DNA of 64,000 bases, from assembly GCA_947259585.1 (NCBI GenBank), contig CAMYMV010000018.1:15415-79414 (forward strand). Direction: 5' to 3'. Under the pieces are notes generated by a model. It saw only the letters and a program-made list of their open reading frames with translations, was not told the origin of the DNA and ran no database searches. Position numbers and translations under genes: made by a program. This DNA is from an uncultured Gemmatimonadales bacterium (GTDB lineage Bacteria > Gemmatimonadota > Gemmatimonadetes > Palauibacterales > Palauibacteraceae). Numbering within the stretch: position 1 is the first letter of the stretch; every line of letters starts with the position of its first letter. Shown in pieces: positions 45,295 through 57,743 of the stretch.

Positions 45295-46110
45295 CTAGTT
45301 ACGAAGTGGGATGTCGAACTCCAGGCTTCGCTCGACGTCGAAGTGATCGTTCTCGTCCACCGCCGTGGCGATGATCCGGATCGCGTTCACGTCCGAGAGC
45401 TGGGGATCTGGCACCTTCCCCTTGATTTTGGTCCCATCCCGCAGCCAGTAGTTGAACTCCGAGTCCGTATCGAACGGCCCCGCGAGCTCCTGCGAGCCGC
45501 GCCAGATCGCGACCCCGTTTCCGAACACGGAGTTGGCGAACCGGTAGGTCAACCGGCGGTACTCTTGCACGATACCGCCGACCTCGGCGGCCACCTGGAA
45601 CGGGAAGGTGCCCAGCTCGATGTAGTCGGCGTCCGCACCGGTACCGGGAGCCCCGGCCGCCATGCAGACCCCCTTCGGGCCCGCTCCGCTCGAGACGACG
45701 GTGCCCGTGAGGTTATCGGCATACGCGAAGGTCGCGGCATAGGGGCCTGAGTAGGCCGTTCCGCGAAACCCGGCTGGCAGGTTGGCGTTCGTCACGTTGT
45801 CGAAGACGAAGAGGGTCGTGGTGAGACCTATGTCATCCACCTCGCACACCACGGCACGAGCAGTGGCGAAACGGACCGAAACCGAGTCGAGCTCGGCCTC
45901 GATAATGTCCAAAGGAGACGCCAACCGGAGCTCGGCCGACATGAGATCTGCCGCGGCGCGCAGGTTCTGCTGCGCAACGACGGTCGACTCGTTCCGCTCG
46001 TAGAAACGTGTCTGACCAAGGAGAATCGATATAAGGGCGCTCGCCACGAGGCCGCCCACCACGAGCCCCACCAGGACCTCGACGAGCGTGAAGCCGGCTC
46101 GGCGGGTCAT
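45295..46110 (-). CDS. PilW-like prepilin
   Basis: GFTLVEVLV; QQNLRAA...ELR; C-terminal LRN. Confidence 0.85.
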   Translation of the reverse strand: MTRRAGFTLVEVLVGLVVGGLVASALISILLGQTRFYERNESTVVAQQNLRAAADLMSAELRLASPLDIIEAELDSVSVRFATARAVVCEVDDIGLTTTLFVFDNVTNANLPAGFRGTAYSGPYAATFAYADNLTGTVVSSGAGPKGVCMAAGAPGTGADADYIELGTFPFQVAAEVGGIVQEYRRLTYRFANSVFGNGVAIWRGSQELAGPFDTDSEFNYWLRDGTKIKGKVPDPQLSDVNAIRIIATAVDENDHFDVERSLEFDIPLRN

Positions 46111-46164
46111 GGATCCGGTCTCGGATGCTTTGTCATGGTCAGCCAAGGAGCACCTCCGGGGCGC

Positions 46165-46578
46165 TCAAGGGGTCGGAAGGTCGCGGGCCGAGTAGAGACG
46201 CGTCCTGACCTCGTGAGGCCCGAGCATGTCTCTGCCACCCACCTGTACGAGCACTTCCTTCACGCCGGTTGCAGGGGAGGTGACGGTCCGCGTCACCTCG
46301 TAGGCGAACCCGCCGATCGTTACCGTGTCCTTGCCGCTGACTGCGTCCGCGAAGCCGTCCTGATGCACTTCCTCGAGGACCTGTTGAGCGGCGAAGGACT
46401 GACCTGTCTGATAGTCGGAGAGGCGGCTCTGGCTGGCCACCGACAGGCTGAGTCCGGCGACGGCCAACAGACCGACGGCAAGGAGCGCAGCGGCGATCAG
46501 CGCTTCGATCAGGCCGAAGCCGCTCTCCGCGCCCATGGCCGCGCCCGGCTGCCTTCGCTTCTCTGACGAAGAGGGCAT
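46165..46578 (-). CDS. PilV-like prepilin
   Basis: GFGLIEALIA..LLAVGLLA. Confidence 0.82.
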   Translation of the reverse strand: MPSSSEKRRQPGAAMGAESGFGLIEALIAAALLAVGLLAVAGLSLSVASQSRLSDYQTGQSFAAQQVLEEVHQDGFADAVSGKDTVTIGGFAYEVTRTVTSPATGVKEVLVQVGGRDMLGPHEVRTRLYSARDLPTP

Positions 46579-46582
46579 GCGA

Positions 46583-47095
46583 TCAACTACCTCCGGCGGA
46601 GTCAACCGTCCGATAGCGGGCCAGCGCGTTAACCACGACCCGCAGCGACTTGGTTCGGCCGAATACATCGATCTCGCCACCACCGGCTCCCAGCAGGAGT
46701 CCGCGGGAGTTGAAGGTCAGCGAGTCTCCGGTGAAACGAACATCCAGCCTGGTGAGCGGGAGGTCTGAATCCGGGGTGAACTCACGATTCTGGAACACCG
46801 TGCCTGCCCTGTCGCGGATCTCGTAGCTGATCGCCGGTTCGTTCGCGGCGAGCGACACGTTGCTCCTCGTGCGGATCGCCAGGCCGCGCGTCAGCGCGAC
46901 GTCCGAGCCGACGACCGCTGCCGCGCGATCGACGACCGTTCGCTCTCTGAGCGTCGTGATGCTCTCGGAGCCCACGAGCAGCACTAGGCTAAGGATCGAG
47001 ATAGCGATGAGCATCTCGATGAGCGTGAAGCCGCCTTCGCCGACACGCACTCGGCGTCGCTTCTTTTCCCTAACGATCGGTGTTGCAGGACACAT
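46583..47095 (-). CDS. FimT/GspH-like prepilin
   Basis: GFTLIEMLIA; TFNSRG; start approximate. Confidence 0.85.
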   Translation of the reverse strand: MCPATPIVREKKRRRVRVGEGGFTLIEMLIAISILSLVLLVGSESITTLRERTVVDRAAAVVGSDVALTRGLAIRTRSNVSLAANEPAISYEIRDRAGTVFQNREFTPDSDLPLTRLDVRFTGDSLTFNSRGLLLGAGGGEIDVFGRTKSLRVVVNALARYRTVDSAGGS

Positions 47096-47111
47096 GGCAC
47101 CACATGAATCG

Positions 47112-47127
47112 AGCAAGGATCGAGCCA
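47112..47127 (-). promoter_or_regulatory. Sigma54 promoter of pilin operon 2
   Basis: TGGCTC-GATCC-TTGCT on the minus strand. Confidence 0.65.
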
Positions 47128-47314
47128 ACTGGCGGAACGATCTCGCGCCCCAGCTCTTACATCCATATGTATCTTAACAGCAGTGGCTTACGGGTATTCT
47201 GTACCTGGCAGTCAGATCAAGCGAAGGGCGGAAGCTACGGCTGGCAACGTCAGCTCCGGCACTTTACAAGGGGGTTCTCAGAGCCTCGGGGCTCGTTTCC
47301 CCGGCCAGGGCACC

Positions 47315-48707: not shown

Positions 48708-49097
48708 GAGATCTCCGCGTGTGAAAAACGCCCACGACAAAGGACTTTCCGAGTATATCGCAAACTAAATAGGCAATCGCTTGCCGTCAAAGCAACCGAC
48801 AGTAAGCTCGCTGGTATCGTTAAGCGATATATTGTATACGACCAATCAATGACAGGAAGACCCGGCTCACCTTCTCAGGTGATCCATGAGGACGCGACCG
48901 GACCCGCGCGTCGGAGTGCACGCCACGGTTGCGGAGCCGGGTGATCGGAATAGATTAGCCGCCCCGCTGCGATCTCCCTGAAAACGGAGACGGACCTTCG
49001 CCCCTCGTCCAAGGACGGGGGCGTTTGGTCTCGGGAACAATCGTGTCCGCCCGTGGTCCAATGGACCCGTGCCGGTGCGAGGAGCCCGACGGTGGAC

Positions 49098-49184
<87 letters not shown>

Positions 49185-49226
49185 CTCGACCGGCTGCGCG
49201 CGGCGGTGCTGCGAGCAGCATGACCA

Positions 49227-49311
49227 GCCCAGGTGGCGGAATTGGCAGACGCGCTAGCTTGAGGGGCTAGTGCCCTATACGGGCGTGGAGGTTCGAATCC
49301 TCTCCTGGGCA
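49227..49311 (+). tRNA. tRNA-Leu (GAG)
   Basis: Cloverleaf with long variable arm. Confidence 0.95.
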
Positions 49312-49378
49312 TGACCCGCCGGCGACGTCCGTCAATGACGCGCCGGCCGCCGCCTACCCGGCGTGCAGATCCGAAAAT

Positions 49379-49452
49379 GCGCCCGTAGCTCAACTGGATA
49401 GAGCACCTGACTACGGATCAGGAGGTTGGGAGTTCGAATCTCTCCGGGCGTA
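49379..49452 (+). tRNA. tRNA-Arg (ACG)
   Basis: Cloverleaf, ACG anticodon. Confidence 0.95.
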
Positions 49453-49720: not shown

Positions 49721-50989
49721 ATGTTTGGATACCGACTTTCTCCCCTCCAGCTGATCCGTTCCGATCAGGGTAGCGCCATGGCCATGACCGCGCTGGGCAT
49801 GGTCCTCTTCCTGGGCGTAGTCGCGCTGGCCGTGGATTTGGGGATGCTGTTGGGCTCCCGGACCGAGTCGCAGCGCGCGGCCGATTCGGCCGCCCTGGCG
49901 GGTGCGGCTTCCCTTATCGGCGGGCCGAACGACGAGGTCAGGGCCAAAGCGTGGGCCGACGAGTTCGCGGAAAAGCACACGGTGCACGGCGAGTCTGTAG
50001 ATCTGAGGCCCGACCAGGGATCTCCCCCCGACGTCGAAGTCTTCCTCGCAGAGAAGAAGGTGCGCGTACGCGTGAGGAACATCGCGGCGGGGCGAAACAA
50101 CGCGATCCCGACTGTATTCGCCCGGGTGCTGGGACGGAACGAGGTAAACGTGTCGACCGTGGCGGCCGCCTGGGCCGTGCCGTCGGGAGCGGCCCGCTGT
50201 CCGATACCGCTTGCGTTACCGGACAACTGGGATGACGTCGATGGCGACAACATCTTCGATCCGGGAGAGTGGTACGAACCGTTCGATCCGGGCAATCCGC
50301 AGGCGCCCCACACGGGATACGACCTCAGCGACATCGTTCTGGACGACACGGGGCTGATCGAGATCAAGACGCGCGGCGGGCCCGCCGGGGGTGGTGCCGG
50401 GAACAGCATCTGCACCGACTTCCCGAGCTGGCGCTGCTGGTTTCAGCCGTTCGCCATAGACGGTGGACCCGGCGGCGGCGGTGCCAACGCGTTGAGGCCG
50501 TGGATCAACTCGTGTCCGGACCCGGGCATCGAACTCACCGCGGGCGGCTTTGGCAACCCCCCGGAACCCGCTACCGAGATCTACGCGGCCTCCGCGTCGG
50601 GCAACATGCAGTCGCTGGTCGACGACTTCAAAGATCTCATCGACAACCTGGAATACGAAGCCCAGTGGGGGACCCACACGGGCAGTGACGGTGACAGAAT
50701 CTGCCCGGTTCTCCCCAATTCCGGGGGCTGCGCGGGACCTACGAACCTGCGAGTGCGCATCATGCCGGTCGTCAGGCCGGACCTGGTAACCGGAACGGGG
50801 TCCAACGTCCACGCCCCGGTTGCCGCACTGGTGTGTGTCTGGATCGACAAGGTGGCCGAGACCCCCGGCGGGGCTCACGGGTCCGGTCCTCCGGGCCGAC
50901 GAAACGTCTACGTCCGACTGTACGACGGCTGTGGCGGCGAGGGGGTCGGAAACAACCCGTTCGCGTATACGCTTCAGCTCATCGAGTAG
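49721..50989 (+). CDS. TadG-like protein, paralog of 42453-43778
   Basis: ALAVDLG...QRAADSAALAGA; shares SWRCWFQP and SASGNMQSLV. Confidence 0.8.
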   Translation: MFGYRLSPLQLIRSDQGSAMAMTALGMVLFLGVVALAVDLGMLLGSRTESQRAADSAALAGAASLIGGPNDEVRAKAWADEFAEKHTVHGESVDLRPDQGSPPDVEVFLAEKKVRVRVRNIAAGRNNAIPTVFARVLGRNEVNVSTVAAAWAVPSGAARCPIPLALPDNWDDVDGDNIFDPGEWYEPFDPGNPQAPHTGYDLSDIVLDDTGLIEIKTRGGPAGGGAGNSICTDFPSWRCWFQPFAIDGGPGGGGANALRPWINSCPDPGIELTAGGFGNPPEPATEIYAASASGNMQSLVDDFKDLIDNLEYEAQWGTHTGSDGDRICPVLPNSGGCAGPTNLRVRIMPVVRPDLVTGTGSNVHAPVAALVCVWIDKVAETPGGAHGSGPPGRRNVYVRLYDGCGGEGVGNNPFAYTLQLIE

Positions 50990-51046
50990 GAACCGGGGTT
51001 GGTCGCTTTCGATTAGAGGACTGGCCTGCGGGTCGAGGCGGTCCGG

Positions 51047-51337
51047 TCAGTCGAGGTCCGGCCAGTCGATCACGGCCGGATCTTCGGTTACAACTTCCTC
51101 ACCGGCCTCTTTCTGGAGATCCCTCGCAACTCGCGCGATGCGGCTCAGTGCGTCGCGCTCCTTCCTGTGTCCCGGCGGGACGCGAGAGGCGACGCTCTTC
51201 CATTGCTCGGGGGTGAGAGAGCCGATGATCCGGTCCCGTTTGAGGACCCGGTCCAGGAGGTAGCGCAGCTCAGCCTGGAGCCCGCTCGCGGTGGAGTGGC
51301 GTAGGTGCTCTCGGATGCTCTCGAGGCGGCCGTTCAT
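51047..51337 (-). CDS. Hypothetical protein
   Basis: 96-aa ORF with host-like codon usage. Confidence 0.5.
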   Translation of the reverse strand: MNGRLESIREHLRHSTASGLQAELRYLLDRVLKRDRIIGSLTPEQWKSVASRVPPGHRKERDALSRIARVARDLQKEAGEEVVTEDPAVIDWPDLD

Positions 51338-51390
51338 CTGGTGGCGGCTGGGGCGATCCCTTCGCGCTGAGCCTGGGTTGCGTTACGAAA

Positions 51391-51427
51391 AATGGGGTAA
51401 GGGCCCGGCGAGACGCCGGACCCTTAC
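51391..51427 (-). terminator. Terminator-like hairpin downstream of the CHAT module
   Basis: GTAAGGGCCCGGCG/CGCCGGACCCTTAC stem; T-run follows on the minus strand. Confidence 0.5.
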
Positions 51428-51581
51428 GGTCGGACCCCATGTGCGACGCGGACGTCGCGTGCCTGATTTCGGCTCAGGCAAGGCCGGCGCTGTCCCGCTC
51501 AATCGGTAGGTGCCTCGAGCCGGCGAAACCTTACATGTCGTCGCGAATCGGGAGAGGTTCCCGCGGTCATCTCCGCAGGAG

Positions 51582-51776
51582 CTACTCCGTGCCGATGCCC
51601 TTCTTCCTGGGACTGAAGTTGGGTGGCTCGGTGACCGGTGCGGCCGCCGTGTCAGCCACGGCCCCGCTGCCAGTGACGGCCGTGGCCGATCCTGGCTCTG
51701 CCGGCGCCGTCGGTTGCTGGGCGCAGGCGACTGCTCCTCCGAGGGCCACGAGCAGGGCGAAGGCGATCGACTTCAT
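51582..51776 (-). CDS. Small lipoprotein (64 aa)
   Basis: GAGGAG RBS, AVAC lipobox, Ala/Pro linker, PRKKGIGTE tail. Confidence 0.7.
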   Translation of the reverse strand: MKSIAFALLVALGGAVACAQQPTAPAEPGSATAVTGSGAVADTAAAPVTEPPNFSPRKKGIGTE

Positions 51777-51928
51777 GGGTTACTCCTCGTACAGGTGAAT
51801 CCGCGGGAATCCCGTCCCTTTTCTTCAATCGACGGACGGCTTTCGCTGATTTGCGGGGTTGATAGTTGCAGGGTTCGAGCCACCCGGGGCGGCGCCCGGG
51901 GCCGATCAGATCCGGAAGGCGCGTTAGT

Positions 51929-54841
51929 TCAGTGGCCGCTGCCGTTTAGGCGATAGCCGGCCCAGTAGAACGGATCGTCGAACTCGGGGTGCGCGATCAT
52001 CCTAAGCTGGGCGCGTGCAAGAGCTTGCGACGGAGGAAGGTCCCGCAGCTCCTCGTAAAAGAAGCCTGCGAGCAGAGCGGCGCTTCGATCTTCGACTCGC
52101 CAAAGCGTCGCCAACACGTTTTGCGCACCGACATACAAAAATGATTGAGCCAGAGTGGAGTAATCCTCTCCGCTGTCGAAGCGTGTCGCCGTAGCCGGCC
52201 CCAGGCCTGTATCGCAGCCTGAGAGGTAGATGAGAGGCGTCCTGATCTGGAGGTCCAGGATCTCGTGGATCTCGAGCCGGCCATCGTCGTCAGTCCTCTC
52301 CGAGCGGCCGGGAGCCAACTCGAGCCGCGAGAACAACGGATTGCGCGCGTTCATGACCGCGTGCGAGGCGAAATGCACGAGCCCGCCGCTTTCCAGCACG
52401 CTCCGGAGTCGTTCCTCGGTAGCCGTCGCTCCCCGGTAGAAGAGCGCCTCCGGCCGGAGCGGCATGACCGCCTGTGCCTCCTCGTTCGTGGCCGGAAGCT
52501 CCCTGGGGAAGGGAGCCAAGACGTACGTCGCATCCTCGGCGAAGCTGACCTCGGATCCAGCCGAGCCTCGCGAACGGAGCTCCGGCAGGGAGGCGGCGGA
52601 GGGGAGGTGAAGGAGCGGCAGGATCTCGACGAGTCGTCGCCCGCGACCGGGCTCCAGGAGCGCCGCGAACGGCAGGTACGTGAGCACGGCGTGCGGAACG
52701 ACGATCAGGAGATCGGCTTCGGAGAGCCGAATGGAGCGGGCGGCGGGGGCGATAAGCGTCTCGTACAGCGCCTCCAGGACGGGAGCGGACTCGTCCGGGC
52801 CTCCGCCGGGGCTGCCGAGTAGCTTTCGTGCGAGTCTGACCCTGCTTTCCAGATCCTCTCTCGCCGCCTTGGAGGCGACAACCAGAAATGTATCTTGCGT
52901 GACGATGAAGGCTTCGACGCGCTCGGGCATGACGAAGTACTCGAGGAGGACCTCGCCCGGCTGCAGAGCCGCCTGAACCTCGATCTCGAGCTGATCCGCG
53001 TAACGGGGGTCCGCGCTGCTCGAAGTCCTCTCCGCCACGCTGACCTGCAGGGCCTCGTAGTCGCTTCGTGCCCTGGCCAGTCGAGCCCACAGCAGGGCGG
53101 CAGCGGTGTCGACGCCGACTCCTCCCTCGGCCTGTATCGCATCCAGGGTCGCCACGAGCTGGCCGATGCGGCGAAGCAGTTCCTCGGCGCGGCCCGTCTC
53201 TTCGGTTGCTTCGCCGGCGCTACCCGAGCTGCCGCGCAGAACCACGTGCTCACGGAGCGCCTGCCCCCGAGCCTGGTCGGCGACCACGAAGGCTTCGGAG
53301 GTCATGCCGGCTCTAAGGAGTGCGGTCATCAGGTCGGCGTACGTCCTCTGACGGGCCGCCGAGAACCCGGCTCTCATCGCTCTCGACCGGAAACTCCCGC
53401 GCACACGCTCCACGGTGCTCACGGCGCGACGGCCTACGGCGAGCGCCGAATCCACCTCGCCGAGGTGCAGGAAGGCGCGCGCCCGCAGGGCTTGGGCTTC
53501 CCACTCGGTCTCGTAGTCGCCTTGAAAGAGACGGGGCCCAGCGTCGCTGATCGCCGCGATGACGCGTTCGGCCTCCGAGCGCTCGTCGGATATGCGGGCC
53601 GCCGCCAGCGCGACGGAAGCGGCTGCCGAGCGTGTCCCGAGCTCGCTCGCCAGCTCCCGAGCCTCGGCGAGGAGCGAGTCCGCCCGATCCTCGGACCCGG
53701 CTGACTCTTCGAGCTCGGAGAGCACGACCAGGCCCTCCAGCTCCTCGAAGCGAGCCCCCACGCGTCGATGGGTTTCCAACGACCCCGTGGCCAGGTCGAG
53801 CGCCCTGTCAGTGTTGCCGAGCTCGGCAAAGATCTCGGCCTGTGCGCGCAGGCTGCGGCCGAGCTCCGTCTCGAGACCCGTCCCGGCATAGATCTCCTGC
53901 GCTTCGGCGTACAGCTCGAGGGCCCTGACCCGGTTGTCGGCGGCGACATACAGCTCAGCGATCACCGCCAGGTCGTTCGCCTCCTGCTGCCTGAGCCCCT
54001 GCGATCGAGCGATCGCCAGAGCGCTGTCGTACATGACGTGCGCTCCGCCGAGATTCCCCAGCACCGCGTACGCGCTTCCCAGCTGACCCAGGGCGTTTTC
54101 GAGGCCCGTCGGGTAGTCGATCTCGCGGTACAGCCCGGCCGCCTCCTGCAGAAGAGGTATGGCGTGAAGCGGCCGGCCGACCATGATCTCCAGAGCGCCG
54201 AGGTTCGTGAGGGCGTTCCCCGCCATCACGCCGTCATCCAAAGCGCGGCCCGCTCTGAGCATGGTGGCGTAACCCTCGCGCGCCTTCGCGAACTCCCCCC
54301 ACTCGGTGGCGACGAGAGCGAGGTTGCCCGAGGCCCTCGCTGCTCCTGCCGCGTCGCCCACGTCGTTCGCCGCGTCGGAGGCCTGCCCGAACAGAGTCGC
54401 GGCATCCTCGAATCGGGACTCGTCCCATGCCACCAATCCGAGTGCGTTGTAACTGCGCGAGAGCTGGTCGTTGAGGCTCGCCTCCAGCTTGTCGGCCAGG
54501 GCTTTCTCGCCAAGCTGCTTCGCCTCCGAGTAGCGGCCCTGCCGCCACGCGGCGAGCCCCAGCCACGTCGTGGCTCGCGCCCGCGCGGCTACATCCCCAA
54601 CTGCGGCGGCATCTGCTTCGACCGATGCCAGGATGGAACGAGCGCTGTCGTACTCCCCGTCGTAGTAGATGCCGAGTGCCGTGGAGAGACGGGATTCCAG
54701 GCTGGAGGATTCGGAGATGGGTGAGGAGGCCGGGAGCTCTTCCCCGGTGGGTCGGCCGAACTCGAGCGAGTCATCGCACCCCCCCGACGCGGCCAGCGTG
54801 AATAAAACAGCCAGCCGGCAGCCGAAGGAGCGTTGGATCAG
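51929..54841 (-). CDS. Lipoprotein TPR-CHAT (caspase-like) protease
   Basis: TPR repeats; HFASHA and LSGCDT catalytic motifs; PFYWAG; frame open upstream of 54436 to a signal peptide LAASGGC; CTG start inferred. Confidence 0.85.
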   Translation of the reverse strand: MIQRSFGCRLAVLFTLAASGGCDDSLEFGRPTGEELPASSPISESSSLESRLSTALGIYYDGEYDSARSILASVEADAAAVGDVAARARATTWLGLAAWRQGRYSEAKQLGEKALADKLEASLNDQLSRSYNALGLVAWDESRFEDAATLFGQASDAANDVGDAAGAARASGNLALVATEWGEFAKAREGYATMLRAGRALDDGVMAGNALTNLGALEIMVGRPLHAIPLLQEAAGLYREIDYPTGLENALGQLGSAYAVLGNLGGAHVMYDSALAIARSQGLRQQEANDLAVIAELYVAADNRVRALELYAEAQEIYAGTGLETELGRSLRAQAEIFAELGNTDRALDLATGSLETHRRVGARFEELEGLVVLSELEESAGSEDRADSLLAEARELASELGTRSAAASVALAAARISDERSEAERVIAAISDAGPRLFQGDYETEWEAQALRARAFLHLGEVDSALAVGRRAVSTVERVRGSFRSRAMRAGFSAARQRTYADLMTALLRAGMTSEAFVVADQARGQALREHVVLRGSSGSAGEATEETGRAEELLRRIGQLVATLDAIQAEGGVGVDTAAALLWARLARARSDYEALQVSVAERTSSSADPRYADQLEIEVQAALQPGEVLLEYFVMPERVEAFIVTQDTFLVVASKAAREDLESRVRLARKLLGSPGGGPDESAPVLEALYETLIAPAARSIRLSEADLLIVVPHAVLTYLPFAALLEPGRGRRLVEILPLLHLPSAASLPELRSRGSAGSEVSFAEDATYVLAPFPRELPATNEEAQAVMPLRPEALFYRGATATEERLRSVLESGGLVHFASHAVMNARNPLFSRLELAPGRSERTDDDGRLEIHEILDLQIRTPLIYLSGCDTGLGPATATRFDSGEDYSTLAQSFLYVGAQNVLATLWRVEDRSAALLAGFFYEELRDLPPSQALARAQLRMIAHPEFDDPFYWAGYRLNGSGH

Positions 54842-55422
54842 GGTTCGGACCAGAGGCGACTCGCGTCCGTCGTGGCGGTCGTGCCGTCAGTCAGCAATGC
54901 TTCGACGAACCAAAAGTAGCGGTTGCCCGACTCTACTTCGAGGTCTGCCGGGAGCCGGAGGATGGTGTCGGTGGTCGATCCGCTCCAAACGAGGTCGCCC
55001 CGCTCGTCTGTGACGGTAAGGCTGTAGAAGGCGCCGGGCGCCACCTCACGCCAGAGGAAGACCGCGCCGGCCAGCGACTCGACCCGGGCGCCGTCGAGCG
55101 GCGCGACCGTCCCGAACTTCCGGACACCTTCTTCCACGGCCGGCCCGCCGTCGCGCAGCATGGTCTCCCTTTCCGCGAGATCTCGCTCGACGCTGGGACC
55201 GAGTAGCAGGACGCCGGTCAGCGCAGCCGCGGCCGCACCGATGCCGCCCGCCACCCGCGCTCGGCGCTGACGCCGCGAGTGACGCAACACTCCGGTTACC
55301 TGGATGAGCTCGTCGCGGCAAAGGCCGCAGCCCTCAAGATGAGTTTCCACGCCAGCCGCATCGGAGCCGCGAACGGCTCGGCTCGCGTAGGAGGCCATCT
55401 GTTCGCTTGTCAGATGTGACAC
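54838..55422 (-). CDS. Zinc-finger (zf-HC2/ZAS) anti-sigma factor with TM and extracytoplasmic domain
   Basis: HLEGCGLC, basic patch, TM helix, F.W...Y...W...Y.W.V beta-domain. Confidence 0.85.
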   Translation of the reverse strand: MSHLTSEQMASYASRAVRGSDAAGVETHLEGCGLCRDELIQVTGVLRHSRRQRRARVAGGIGAAAAALTGVLLLGPSVERDLAERETMLRDGGPAVEEGVRKFGTVAPLDGARVESLAGAVFLWREVAPGAFYSLTVTDERGDLVWSGSTTDTILRLPADLEVESGNRYFWFVEALLTDGTTATTDASRLWSEP

Positions 55423-55531
55423 GATACCAACGCTCCAAACGGGGATCTGGCTTCCTTCAGGAGTGGGATGACAGAAACGGCCAAAGTCTTTCTTCCCCTG
55501 GGAAGCCGGGCTTCACCTCGCGTATGGGTGG

Positions 55532-56248
55532 TCATGGCAGGGAGTCCGACACGCCCCGCTCCCGGAGCCGCTGGCGGAGCTCTTCGAGCACCTTCTTGAG
55601 CCTCCGGTAGACGTGGAAGGGAGAGGGAAACCCCATCGCGTCGGCGATCTCCCGCGCCGAACGTCCGTCCTCGAATCGGAAACGGAGCAAGAGTCGATCC
55701 CTGGCGGCTAGCGATCCAATCGCCTCCTGCAGCGCGACCTCGAGCTCCCGCCGGCGAACATCCGCTTCGGGGTCCACGCTCGTTCGATCGGCCGTTCGGG
55801 CGATGTCGAGCTCCTCGGTCACCAGGTCCAGAAGCCGCCTTCTCTCCCGAGCCCGATGCTCGTCGTCGGGGTCTTCTCGCCGGTCTTTTCGTTTCACACG
55901 CCCGTAGCGGCTGCGCTGGTAGTCGATGCAGAGCCGCCGGGTCACCACCACCAGCCAGGCCTCGAACCTGCCCGCATCCGCACGAGCGAAGGTTCGCAAC
56001 CGCTGATAGTCATCGCGGCTCAGTCCCTCCAGCACGAAGGCGTATTGGTCCATCGCCGCGTCGTAGTCCGAGCTCACGGACCTGACCGTCGACAGGATGA
56101 GTCTGCTGTGGTGGTCGACGAGATCCTGCCAGGCCGCGTCGCGCTCGGGGCCCTGCGGAGACTCGAGCAGACGAGCCACTTCCCGAGGCACCTGCCGCGA
56201 CACCCTGCCCGGCTCCGTTTCGCTCACTCCATCCCTCGATGATGGCAT
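55532..56248 (-). CDS. ECF RNA polymerase sigma factor
   Basis: FEAWL.VVTRRLCIDYQR region 2; L..RDRLLL.FRF.DG.S.REIA region 4. Confidence 0.88.
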   Translation of the reverse strand: MPSSRDGVSETEPGRVSRQVPREVARLLESPQGPERDAAWQDLVDHHSRLILSTVRSVSSDYDAAMDQYAFVLEGLSRDDYQRLRTFARADAGRFEAWLVVVTRRLCIDYQRSRYGRVKRKDRREDPDDEHRARERRRLLDLVTEELDIARTADRTSVDPEADVRRRELEVALQEAIGSLAARDRLLLRFRFEDGRSAREIADAMGFPSPFHVYRRLKKVLEELRQRLRERGVSDSLP

Positions 56249-56387
56249 TCGCGCGCAAAACCGACAGGTGGGTCCGTCAATAATTGATAGGGAGTTGATG
56301 CGTCTTGATAGCGCGTTGACACGCTCGCCGCGGACCCCTGAGCGCCGGCGGTCGAACTGGCGGACGCCAAACAGATCAGGTGAACAA

Positions 56388-56930
56388 ATGGCCGAACAAA
56401 GCTCACAGCAGCCGTTCGACGAAGCGGACCTGATCGCGCGGTTGCGCACCCGGTCGCCGCGTGCCCTCGAAGAGGCATACGATCGGTATGGGCCGATGGT
56501 CTACGAGACGGCATACCGCATCACGGGCTGCCCAGCTGAGGCAAGCGACATCGTTCAGGAAGTATTCCTCCGGCTTACCGCGAGCGTTCAAACGTTCAGC
56601 GGCCGTGGGAGCTTCACGGGCTGGCTGCGGAAGGTCGCCTTGCGAGCGGCCCTCATGAAGTGTCGGGCCAGGCGACGGCGCGCGGAGGTCTCCCTCGAGC
56701 AGGCGCCGCTTCCCTTTGCCCGCCGGCAGGCTCCGGCTCCCGTCGACAGCATCGCGCTCGAGCAGGCGCTTGCCACGCTTTCTCCCTCATTGCGCACGGT
56801 ATTCCTGCTCAAAGTGGTCGAGGGCTACTCGCATGACGAGATCGCCGAGTCTCTGGGCATCAGGCGAGGCACGTCGGAGGTGCGTCTCCACCGGGCGCGT
56901 CAAAGTCTCCAGCAACAGCTGAGCGCCTGA
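56388..56930 (+). CDS. ECF RNA polymerase sigma factor (divergent)
   Basis: DIVQEVF, SFTGWL, EGYSHDEIA, RLHRAR. Confidence 0.9.
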   Translation: MAEQSSQQPFDEADLIARLRTRSPRALEEAYDRYGPMVYETAYRITGCPAEASDIVQEVFLRLTASVQTFSGRGSFTGWLRKVALRAALMKCRARRRRAEVSLEQAPLPFARRQAPAPVDSIALEQALATLSPSLRTVFLLKVVEGYSHDEIAESLGIRRGTSEVRLHRARQSLQQQLSA

Positions 56931-57149
56931 GGTTCGCACCGCCGAGCCCGACACAGCACCCTCGAGCTGACCTCATCCCCCCGACAGCTCCCGAGCGTCG
57001 CACATGACGCCGGGACAACGTACGCGAGGCCCCACGAGAGCCGCCAATTTCCGGTCACCCGAGAGCGGGACTCACGGTACCCCTTTTCCTCCGGTTTCCT
57101 TATGGTATGCGAGCATGCCTCGCGTGCTCGTGCGCGGAGAAGGAGTTGT

Positions 57150-57170
57150 TATCAATAATAGTTATTGATA
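57150..57170. promoter_or_regulatory. Perfect AT-rich 9-3-9 palindrome upstream of ferritin
   Basis: TATCAATAA-TAG-TTATTGATA. Confidence 0.65.
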
Positions 57171-57248
57171 CGTTCCGCCTCTCATGTGAGCCATGCGTGT
57201 GCTGATTTCAGGATCGACGACGATTTCGAGGGAGAACGGAGAGGGTAT

Positions 57249-57743
57249 ATGAACCAGAAGGTGCAAGACGCGATCAACGAGCAGATAGCCGACGAGTTTT
57301 ACGCATCCTACCTCTATCTCTCGATGATGACGTACTTCGAGGCGGAGAGCCTCGGTGGCTACGCCCAGTGGATGCGCATGCAGGCCGAAGAGGAGCACGC
57401 TCACGCCATGAAGCTCGTCGATTTCCTGATCGAGCGCGGTGGGCGCGTGCAGCTTCAGGCGATCGACAAACCGAAAGCCGAGTTCGATTCGCCGCTGGCC
57501 GTCATGCAGGCGGCCCTTGCACACGAGCAAAAGGTCACCGAGAGCATCAACAACCTGTACGAGTTGGCTGTCGCGGAGCGGGATTACCCCGCCCAGGTGA
57601 TGCTCCAGTGGTTCGTTACCGAACAGGTGGAGGAAGAGGCCAGCGCCGGCGCGCTGGTTGATCAGCTGACCCTCGCCGGCGATTCGGGGAGCGCCCTGCT
57701 CATGCTCGACGCGAAGGTGGGGCAGCGGACGACCACTGCCTGA
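57249..57743 (+). CDS. ftnA: Non-heme ferritin
   Basis: NEQI..E...YLY, QAEEE..HA, HEQ.VT..I, LQWFV.EQVEEE. Confidence 0.93.
   Translation: MNQKVQDAINEQIADEFYASYLYLSMMTYFEAESLGGYAQWMRMQAEEEHAHAMKLVDFLIERGGRVQLQAIDKPKAEFDSPLAVMQAALAHEQKVTESINNLYELAVAERDYPAQVMLQWFVTEQVEEEASAGALVDQLTLAGDSGSALLMLDAKVGQRTTTA

Follow-up and report, generated by a model that had tools for sequence, protein, structure and literature searches.

A four-gene module within a 64,000-nucleotide stretch of DNA (the window) from an uncultured Gemmatimonadales bacterium of the family Palauibacteraceae (contig CAMYMV010000018.1, positions 15,415 to 79,414) is best read as a DdvA-like site-1 protease split into separate genes, with a MucE-like peptide gate and a feedback loop. 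The module encodes a sigma factor of the extracytoplasmic function (ECF) type, ECF1; a membrane anti-sigma factor with a zinc-binding anti-sigma (ZAS) domain; a caspase-like protease composed of tetratricopeptide repeats (TPRs) and a CHAT domain; and, as gene 4, a lipoprotein of 64 residues. The short tail of this mini-lipoprotein is conserved and is predicted to dock into the TPR groove of the neighbouring protease. A natural deletion thereby singles out the probable trigger peptide of a switch in which the cutting step is, as yet, a proposal.

An earlier note, made from this sequence alone, had described four co-oriented genes and a divergent second ECF gene (ECF2), and all five were found in place. 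The features of the locus are as follows.

55532..56227 (-): ECF sigma factor 1 (ECF1), 231 residues, GTG start; sigma70 r2/r4 domains; likely the cognate sigma factor of the module
54838..55422 (-): anti-sigma factor, 194 residues; ZAS domain, one membrane helix, linker 74-96, fibronectin type III (FN3)-like domain 103-194
55153..55155 (-): anti-sigma R90 codon; residue predicted to be cut at site 1
51929..54841 (-): TPR-CHAT caspase-like protease, 970 residues; CTG start, lipoprotein signal
54776..54778 (-): protease lipobox Cys22, after a hydrophobic stretch
53963..54556 (-): protease TPR groove, residues 96-293, predicted holder of the gene-4 tail
52361..52363 (-): protease catalytic His827, aligned with Csx29 H585
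52214..52216 (-): protease catalytic Cys876, invariant, aligned with Csx29 C627
51832..51856 (-): ECF-type promoter-like site CGCAA-N12/13-GTCCGT before gene 4, from a de novo motif search
51582..51776 (-): gene 4, the 64-residue mini-lipoprotein; signal peptide, Cys18, Ala/Pro/Thr tether of about 37 residues, conserved tail
51585..51611 (-): mini-lipoprotein tail P56-E64, homologous to the end of a TIG-like domain; K58-E64 is the predicted TPR ligand
51397..51427 (-): intrinsic terminator-like hairpin, 14 pairs and a T run, at the end of the gene-4 unit
56253..56277 (+): promoter-like site, second copy, oriented towards ECF2, 18.0 bits
56388..56930 (+): ECF sigma factor 2 (ECF2), 180 residues; divergent, a genus-specific addition and likely ECF1 target

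The conserved tail of gene 4 and its predicted partner

The comparisons draw on a phylum sample in which 29 of 251 genomes held a protease match at E 1e-120 or better. The pooled loci gave 85 protease/anti-sigma pairs, or 69 once duplicates were removed, and these divide into clade A (36 loci including the present one; support 0.71), clade B (27 loci; support 1.0) and six others. The gene order ECF1, anti-sigma, protease is retained in 20 of 21 close loci (L021-L041).

The 64-residue lipoprotein with its Ala/Pro tether and short tail, as it had been described, is a real gene under selection. It is present in 10 of the 12 genomes of the genus, always directly behind the protease; the other two genomes, 71% and 82% complete, are missing the orthologous protease as well. 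Among the 10 orthologues, the last nine codons have accumulated six extra synonymous codons and two extra residues, compared with 11 and 15 in the preceding nine codons of the tether. Among 18 database homologues, 17 have [KR][KR]G[IM]GTE right before the stop codon, the 18th being a 55-residue form without the tail.

In other genera, the place of gene 4 is taken by a lipoprotein of 300-530 residues with a signal peptide, a Cys, a short linker, a TIG-like domain of about 95 residues and a variable cargo (propellers of the PQQ, PD40 or HAF kind, or unnamed domains). At the end of the TIG-like domain stands [KR][KR]G[IVM]G-x-[ED], which is the tail of the mini protein. The structure of this domain has Atlas TM values of 0.80-0.87 to TIG/Ig clusters; the Pfam TIG match is weak (4 of 14 members, below the cut-off), and the mini-lipoprotein itself has no TIG domain in the Pfam scan. 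Among the best 120 of 367 database matches, the motif was present in 107 of 113 lipoprotein-type domains and in 1 of 56 generic TIG repeats, counts that are to be read with the knowledge that the profile behind the 113 domains includes the motif and that the motif lies beyond the end of many of the 56 control alignments. The two Gly residues of the motif are its most invariant columns (112/113 and 111/113 in the same set).

A motif-bearing gene 4 occupies 34 of the 36 clade A loci (26 of the TIG type, seven mini and one recovered from a longer fetch), and the two loci where none was seen break off at a contig end or an assembly gap. At the 33 other loci (27 of clade B and six others) none was found, 12 of the clade B loci having 1.5 kb or less of downstream DNA. 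The link outlives rearrangement, with gene 4 downstream in L080/L087, upstream in L082/L196 and divergent in L084. When the search started from the lipoprotein, 23 strong TIG-type matches were obtained from 61 genomes: 17 lie in CHAT loci, five no further than 4.4 kb from a contig start, and the remaining one adjoins an ECF1/anti-sigma pair broken by an assembly gap. The earlier expectation that the small lipoprotein would co-occur with homologous loci thus holds for the motif-bearing gene, while the 64-residue form is confined to the genus.

Because the tail is conserved and nearly all homologues stop right after the motif, a single deletion appears to have removed the TIG fold and cargo, leaving only the motif behind the signal and tether. 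Independent origins of the mini form were considered and rejected. A loose pattern for it gave 49 matches in 41 of 401 genomes, which is near the control level, and the 30 fetched loci held no new mini-lipoprotein beside a CHAT gene, the three matches from the genus being already known. In metagenomes, seven of eight pattern matches are the same mini-lipoprotein, six of them with a CHAT gene upstream.

The partner of the tail was predicted in a three-chain job with protease residues 44-970, anti-sigma residues 74-110 and, as the scored partner, lipoprotein residues 31-64; the anti-sigma ectodomain was left outside on account of size. The tail complex scored 0.65 compared with 0.01 for the best of three controls, a result of modelling only. 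The 0.65 mark is reached by 116 of 157 solved pairs and 2 of 215 mismatched pairs, a calibration that is only roughly valid for the present job. The runs agreed in at least 32% of contacts with a partner pLDDT (predicted local distance difference test) of at least 37. Confident contacts came solely from K58-E64 and all fell in the TPR groove. The groove residues L96, R129, N132, A133, L136, W139, N249, G252 and Q253 are 68-97% conserved in the 29 clade A loci outside the genus and 0-8% in clade B. The tail is predicted, by the model, to dock into the TPR groove of the neighbouring protease. This agrees with the earlier proposal of a C-terminal peptide for the TPRs; the C-terminal position itself does not extend to the other genera, where the motif is internal and the TIG-like domain is followed by cargo.

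The exported protease and its candidate substrate

The CHAT domain (PF12770; 182.8 bits against a cut-off of 24, E 1.2e-53) lies C-terminal to the TPRs (TPR_12; 73.1 bits against 30.1). The structure model of the protease (pLDDT 83) has separase, Csx29 and DdvA as its best fold matches, and the closest named relatives are from Gemmatimonadota. The His (HFASHA) and Cys (LSGCDT) dyad is intact as first described, with the refinement that the catalytic His is the second of the HFASHA motif, H827. This residue and C876 align with H585 and C627 of Csx29 (PMC9729208 numbering). Both are kept in 36/36 clade A loci, and the Cys is invariant in 22/22 aligned homologues and in 69/69 CHAT/anti-sigma pairs.

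No ATG, GTG or TTG codon stands ahead of the signal peptide of the protease, and its start codon is a CTG sharing bases with the anti-sigma stop (CTGA). Overlaps of the in-frame NTGA type recur in 26 of the 36 clade A loci (five ATGA, six GTGA, four TTGA and 11 CTGA). As in relatives, the anti-sigma factor and the protease are encoded by two genes that overlap by 4 bases and are read in different frames. A lipobox-like Cys, counted by a crude ad hoc rule as a Cys behind a hydrophobic stretch, is present in 34/36 clade A proteases compared with 0/27 in clade B; the two clade A exceptions are a membrane-anchored form and a split frame. The CTG start and the lipobox Cys support the earlier suggestion that the frame extends to a lipoprotein signal, which would export the protease to the same side as the anti-sigma ectodomain. 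A separate observation concerns genome G002, in which the orthologous protease (L058:6576-9466) lies in two frames near residue 750 beside an intact mini-lipoprotein, through a frameshift or an assembly error.

The residue after the lipid Cys of the protease (54773-54775) is Asp in six of seven loci of the genus and in only 7 of 34 in the clade; in the mini-lipoprotein (51720-51722) it is Ala or Thr. Under the sorting rule of Escherichia coli lipoproteins, the two proteins would be placed in different membranes. Such a separation could prevent the tail from reaching the protease in the resting state.

The anti-sigma factor is modelled as a ZAS domain, a membrane helix, a disordered linker (residues 74-96, pLDDT < 50) and a complete FN3-like cap. 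The ZAS residues H28, C32 and C35 are invariant in 22/22 aligned homologues, and the alignment profile matches the N-terminus of DdvA (residues 7-95, E 1e-6). R90 is the one conserved residue of the linker. It is Arg in at least 90% of the 22 aligned homologues, with the other two shifted by one column, and the linker Arg is visible by eye in most related anti-sigmas; no ExxR motif was found in the linker. Judged from this conservation and from the modelled disorder, R90 is the likely site at which the protease would cut. Two ideas about the ectodomain were discarded: an incomplete Ig fold awaiting a donor strand, since the model is a complete high-confidence sandwich, and a likeness to DUF928, for which there was no Pfam match in 22 members. 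An RseP-like gene is present in the genome, on contig C7. In the related ECF/anti-sigma/CHAT loci L052, L053 and L054, the ectodomain is TPR-like rather than FN3-like and a hydrophobic-Arg linker motif is retained.

Clade B is monophyletic (L042-L051, L083, L086, L090, L095 and L167-L188). His827 is lost in 27/27 of its loci and the Cys is retained. The proteases of this clade carry Sec-type rather than lipoprotein signals and have a different TPR groove; gene 4, by eye, is a different lipoprotein family of 480-730 residues. Immediately before the linker Arg, a His is found in 21/27 clade B anti-sigmas compared with 0/35 in clade A. This would fit a linker lying in the active site and raises the prospect of substrate-assisted catalysis.

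Promoter-like sites, the proposed switch and its rivals

ECF1 matches the NCBIfam sigma70-ECF model at 71 bits (cut-off 42.9) and the Pfam sigma70 r2/r4 domains. A de novo search behind the protease at 13 loci returned CGCAA-N12/13-GTCCG with a score of 202.9, compared with 165-173 in 10 shuffles, and a promoter matrix was built from 11 sites. Upstream of held-out TIG genes, 13 of 15 reached at least 10 bits (4.2% of 4000 random windows did so) and six of 15 reached at least 16 bits (0.9% of random windows). The site before gene 4 tops the genome scan at 20.4 bits, its orthologue having belonged to the training set. The site before ECF2 ranks sixth at 18.0 bits and is outside that set; it recurs at 16.1-18.0 bits in 8/8 loci of the genus, and ECF2 itself was encountered only in these eight loci. 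Because a conserved ECF-type promoter precedes both, gene 4 and ECF2 are likely outputs of the module as well. We infer that ECF1 reads the site, from their co-occurrence and from its bipartite form. Autoregulation of ECF1 was rejected, with at least 10 bits in only 2 of 15 ECF1 upstream regions. No sigma-70 promoter was found within 50900-57300, and a look-up of sequencing runs showed none for RNA.

A variant form of the site, TCAAT ... CATCCGT, occurs in L061 and also in L028, L029 and L062 (L062:6689-8152). In L061 (115-4947), four TIG-type lipoproteins form a tandem array at the contig start, and three have their own variant site. The -35 element of these sites may have changed along with the sigma subclade.

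Several neighbouring genes were also recorded. An open reading frame of 96 residues at 51047-51337 (-), matched in six loci of the genus, was rejected as a fifth gene; it sits beyond the terminator and matches no family in Pfam or NCBIfam. The module is flanked at 45295-47128 (-) and 49721-50989 (+) by pilin-like genes, whose N-terminal methylation-type leaders were recognised by eye, and by a Tad-domain gene; a tRNA-like sequence was spotted by eye near 49070-49450. A ferritin-like gene at 57249-57743 (+) follows ECF2 on the same strand and is a possible ECF2 target.

By sequence, the protease, the anti-sigma ectodomain and gene 4 are all exported and the protease dyad is intact. In the proposed mechanism, residues K58-E64 of gene 4 would occupy the TPR groove and, because this predicted site lies away from the active site, would act allosterically. 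TPR-CHAT proteases are described as inactive until a ligand binds (PMC9729208, PMC11506125). Once activated, the CHAT domain would cut the disordered linker at R90 and remove the FN3-like cap; the RseP-like protease of the genome would then cut within the membrane and free ECF1, as proposed for DdvA. ECF1 would in turn transcribe gene 4 and, in the present genus, ECF2, as the conserved promoter suggests. Transcription of both by ECF1 would thus create a MucE-like positive loop and a sigma cascade. There is precedent for the loop in mucE, which is AlgU-dependent and whose product activates AlgW (PMC3819740).

In most relatives, the motif would be buried at the end of the folded TIG-like domain. 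It would become exposed only where the protein is unfolded, unfinished or clipped, because an extended peptide in the groove cannot also be a paired strand. In the present genus, the Ig and cargo domains would have been lost and the trigger alone retained. That the tail regulates the protease, in one direction or the other, is probable. The specific account, with R90 as the point where the anti-sigma factor is cut by the exported TPR-CHAT protease and with the tail as the on-switch of that protease, is held tentatively, at slightly under an even chance. The earlier idea of a tethered peptide gating an anti-sigma-cutting protease is supported in part by the tail in the modelled groove and by the conserved linker Arg; it has to be amended in that the 64-residue form is genus-specific and gene 4 is likely an output too. 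A broader generalisation is doubtful. It would hold that Gemmatimonadota lipoproteins hide a tethered agonist in the last strand of a TIG-like domain and expose it, by unfolding or clipping, to the separase-like site-1 protease of an ECF pathway; that one genus has been reduced to the bare tethered agonist; and that the sister clade has moved the catalytic His into the anti-sigma cleavage site for substrate-assisted catalysis.

A number of observations weigh against the activating switch, besides the construction of the motif profile given above. An ever-exposed activator under the control of its own sigma factor would run away unless it were kept apart or turned over. The mini form is a single evolutionary event. 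So is the His-less clade, and 6/27 of its loci have no linker His. In the complex prediction, none of the confident contacts named was with the anti-sigma linker, and solved TPR/peptide complexes of the LGN type resemble the TPR array of the protease, so that the pass may reflect this likeness. Taken as a whole, the conservation of the 27 interface residues does not significantly exceed that of other TPR positions (0.52 compared with 0.45, p 0.12); a clade-specific contrast (9/27 compared with 29/190) gave p 0.026 in a test chosen after that outcome. The position of the P1-Arg-binding Asp of separase, D2151, is Ala922 in the present protease (via Csx29 K670), and because of this any specificity for Arg is indicated from the substrate side alone. 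Across 29 proteases, position 922 is Ala in 24, Gly in three and Ser in two. D918 and D893 are invariant and are candidate substitutes for the missing Asp; D918 was dropped as a separase-type S1 Asp, the published register pointing to A922. Matches to the promoter matrix over the whole genome numbered 32 compared with 29 in the reversed genome, and because this is not above the control no further regulon targets are claimed.

The same wiring would also serve an inhibitor. Bound gene-4 product would restrain the protease, loss of the lipoprotein would free it, and ECF1 would restore the lipoprotein in a negative loop of the securin or PCi type. A constantly exposed tail would be easier to tolerate under this arrangement, gene 4 has its own ECF-type promoter and terminator, and caspase-like proteases are known with dedicated inhibitors, securin and PCi (10.1101/2023.06.23.546230). 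Inhibition is nevertheless considered unlikely, in view of a predicted site in the TPR groove rather than the active site and of the folded domain of most relatives, which would hide the motif at rest, when an inhibitor is needed. In another arrangement, gene 4 would be the substrate of the protease, cut at K/R-G so that cargo or a pentapeptide is set free, or the role of the TPR-CHAT protein would be that of a scaffold, and the anti-sigma factor would be released by another protease or signal. The basic-basic-Gly of the motif is a plausible cut site for clan CD enzymes. Clade B keeps the whole arrangement without the catalytic His in 27/27 loci, so catalysis may be dispensable, and the Arg-binding Asp of separase is absent. 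The model, on the other hand, places the motif in the TPR groove and not at H827/C876, and clade A retains both His and Cys at every locus. The Arg also stands out as conserved where the rest of the anti-sigma linker varies, and the amino acid preceding it differs according to the state of the catalytic His. A substrate or scaffold role is accordingly judged decidedly unlikely.

The mini-lipoprotein could also be the leftover of a cargo lipoprotein and a mere output of ECF1, with the motif reflecting a folding requirement of TIG domains and the protease having another ligand. Generic TIG repeats, too, commonly have the first Gly of the motif, the mini form is found in one genus only, and three genomes of that genus hold full-length TIG lipoproteins at other loci. 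Against these points, the full motif is missing from generic TIG repeats, and no full-length TIG lipoprotein was found in the present genome, which is 90% complete. The tail has been kept exactly, with the same stop residue in 17/18 homologues, though the surrounding domain is gone and the tether is drifting; the signal peptide, promoter and terminator are intact. A leftover of this kind appears very improbable.

Comparison with known systems

The activating switch has its closest counterpart in DdvS/DdvA of Myxococcus xanthus, with MucE/AlgW as the nearest parallel for its logic; type III-E CRISPR, which the earlier note had brought forward as an analogue, is more distant. TPR-CHAT proteins are described as widespread and little understood (PMC11506125), and for DdvA, the one studied envelope case, demonstration of the trigger and of the site-1 cut is still awaited. 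In the literature searched, which covered few subscription papers, a split ECF/anti-sigma/TPR-CHAT module, the tail motif and CHAT catalysis with the His in the substrate were undescribed.

As at the present locus, the M. xanthus system comprises an ECF sigma factor, a one-helix ZAS anti-sigma and a periplasmic TPR-CHAT region with a His-Cys dyad, and its flexible juxtamembrane linker has been proposed as a site-1 target ahead of an RseP step (PMC11506125, PMC6061681). The fold of the present protease matches DdvA structures 8rw5/8rot. DdvA, however, is a single fused chain, whereas the anti-sigma and TPR-CHAT parts are two genes here; the protease is a lipoprotein, the anti-sigma factor has its own FN3-like cap, and a candidate peptide ligand is encoded next door. 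Fused DdvA-like proteins are reported only from Myxococcota and one Comamonas (PMC11506125). Unlike the DdvA-type defence-island regulon, the promoter-like sites here face gene 4 and ECF2. Among the eight window proteins scanned with CBASS/CRISPR defence models, to which the scan was confined within the genome, only a generic TPR matched.

In MucE/AlgW/MucA/AlgU of Pseudomonas aeruginosa, and in DimA, a small envelope protein uses a short C-terminal motif, in the way proposed here, to activate a site-1 protease that cuts a membrane anti-sigma factor (PMC3819740, PMC12780092). MucE is also transcribed by the freed sigma factor in a positive loop (PMC3819740), which is predicted here from the promoter-like site. 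AlgW belongs to the HtrA serine proteases and senses through a PDZ domain, whereas the present enzyme is a cysteine protease of clan CD whose sensor would be the TPRs, and no homology is claimed; the motif, unlike that of MucE, is normally internal to an Ig-like domain.

The type III-E Craspase (Csx29, Csx30 and CASP-sigma/RpoE) has a ligand-activated TPR-CHAT protease acting on a sigma-binding protein (PMC9729208), as is proposed here, and shares the dyad alignment and the fold match. Csx29 is cytoplasmic and RNA-triggered via Cas7-11 (PMC9729208), whereas the present protease carries a lipoprotein signal and scores 27.9 bits on the NCBIfam Csx29 model against a cut-off of 300. The ECF54 context of Actinobacteria also places an ECF gene near a TPR-CHAT protein; its carboxypeptidase-regulatory-like and subtilase neighbours (PMC7826278) were not seen at the present locus. 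Separase, of the separase/securin pair, shares the TPR-like array and caspase-like domain and is among the best fold matches. It cuts after Arg in unstructured segments (PMC11506125, PMC9729208), and differs in the P1-Arg-binding Asp, which is Ala here, and in the ExxR motif that the present linker lacks.

By membership criteria, the module does not belong to the DdvA, Csx29 or AlgW family; it would work like DdvA/DdvS split in two, with MucE-like gating. The locus offers small, separable parts: the protease in soluble form, a short candidate substrate in which one Arg is conserved, and a candidate ligand of seven residues. If the reading is true, the logic of DegS/AlgW would have arisen twice, the second time with a TPR sensor and a cysteine protease of the separase-like kind.

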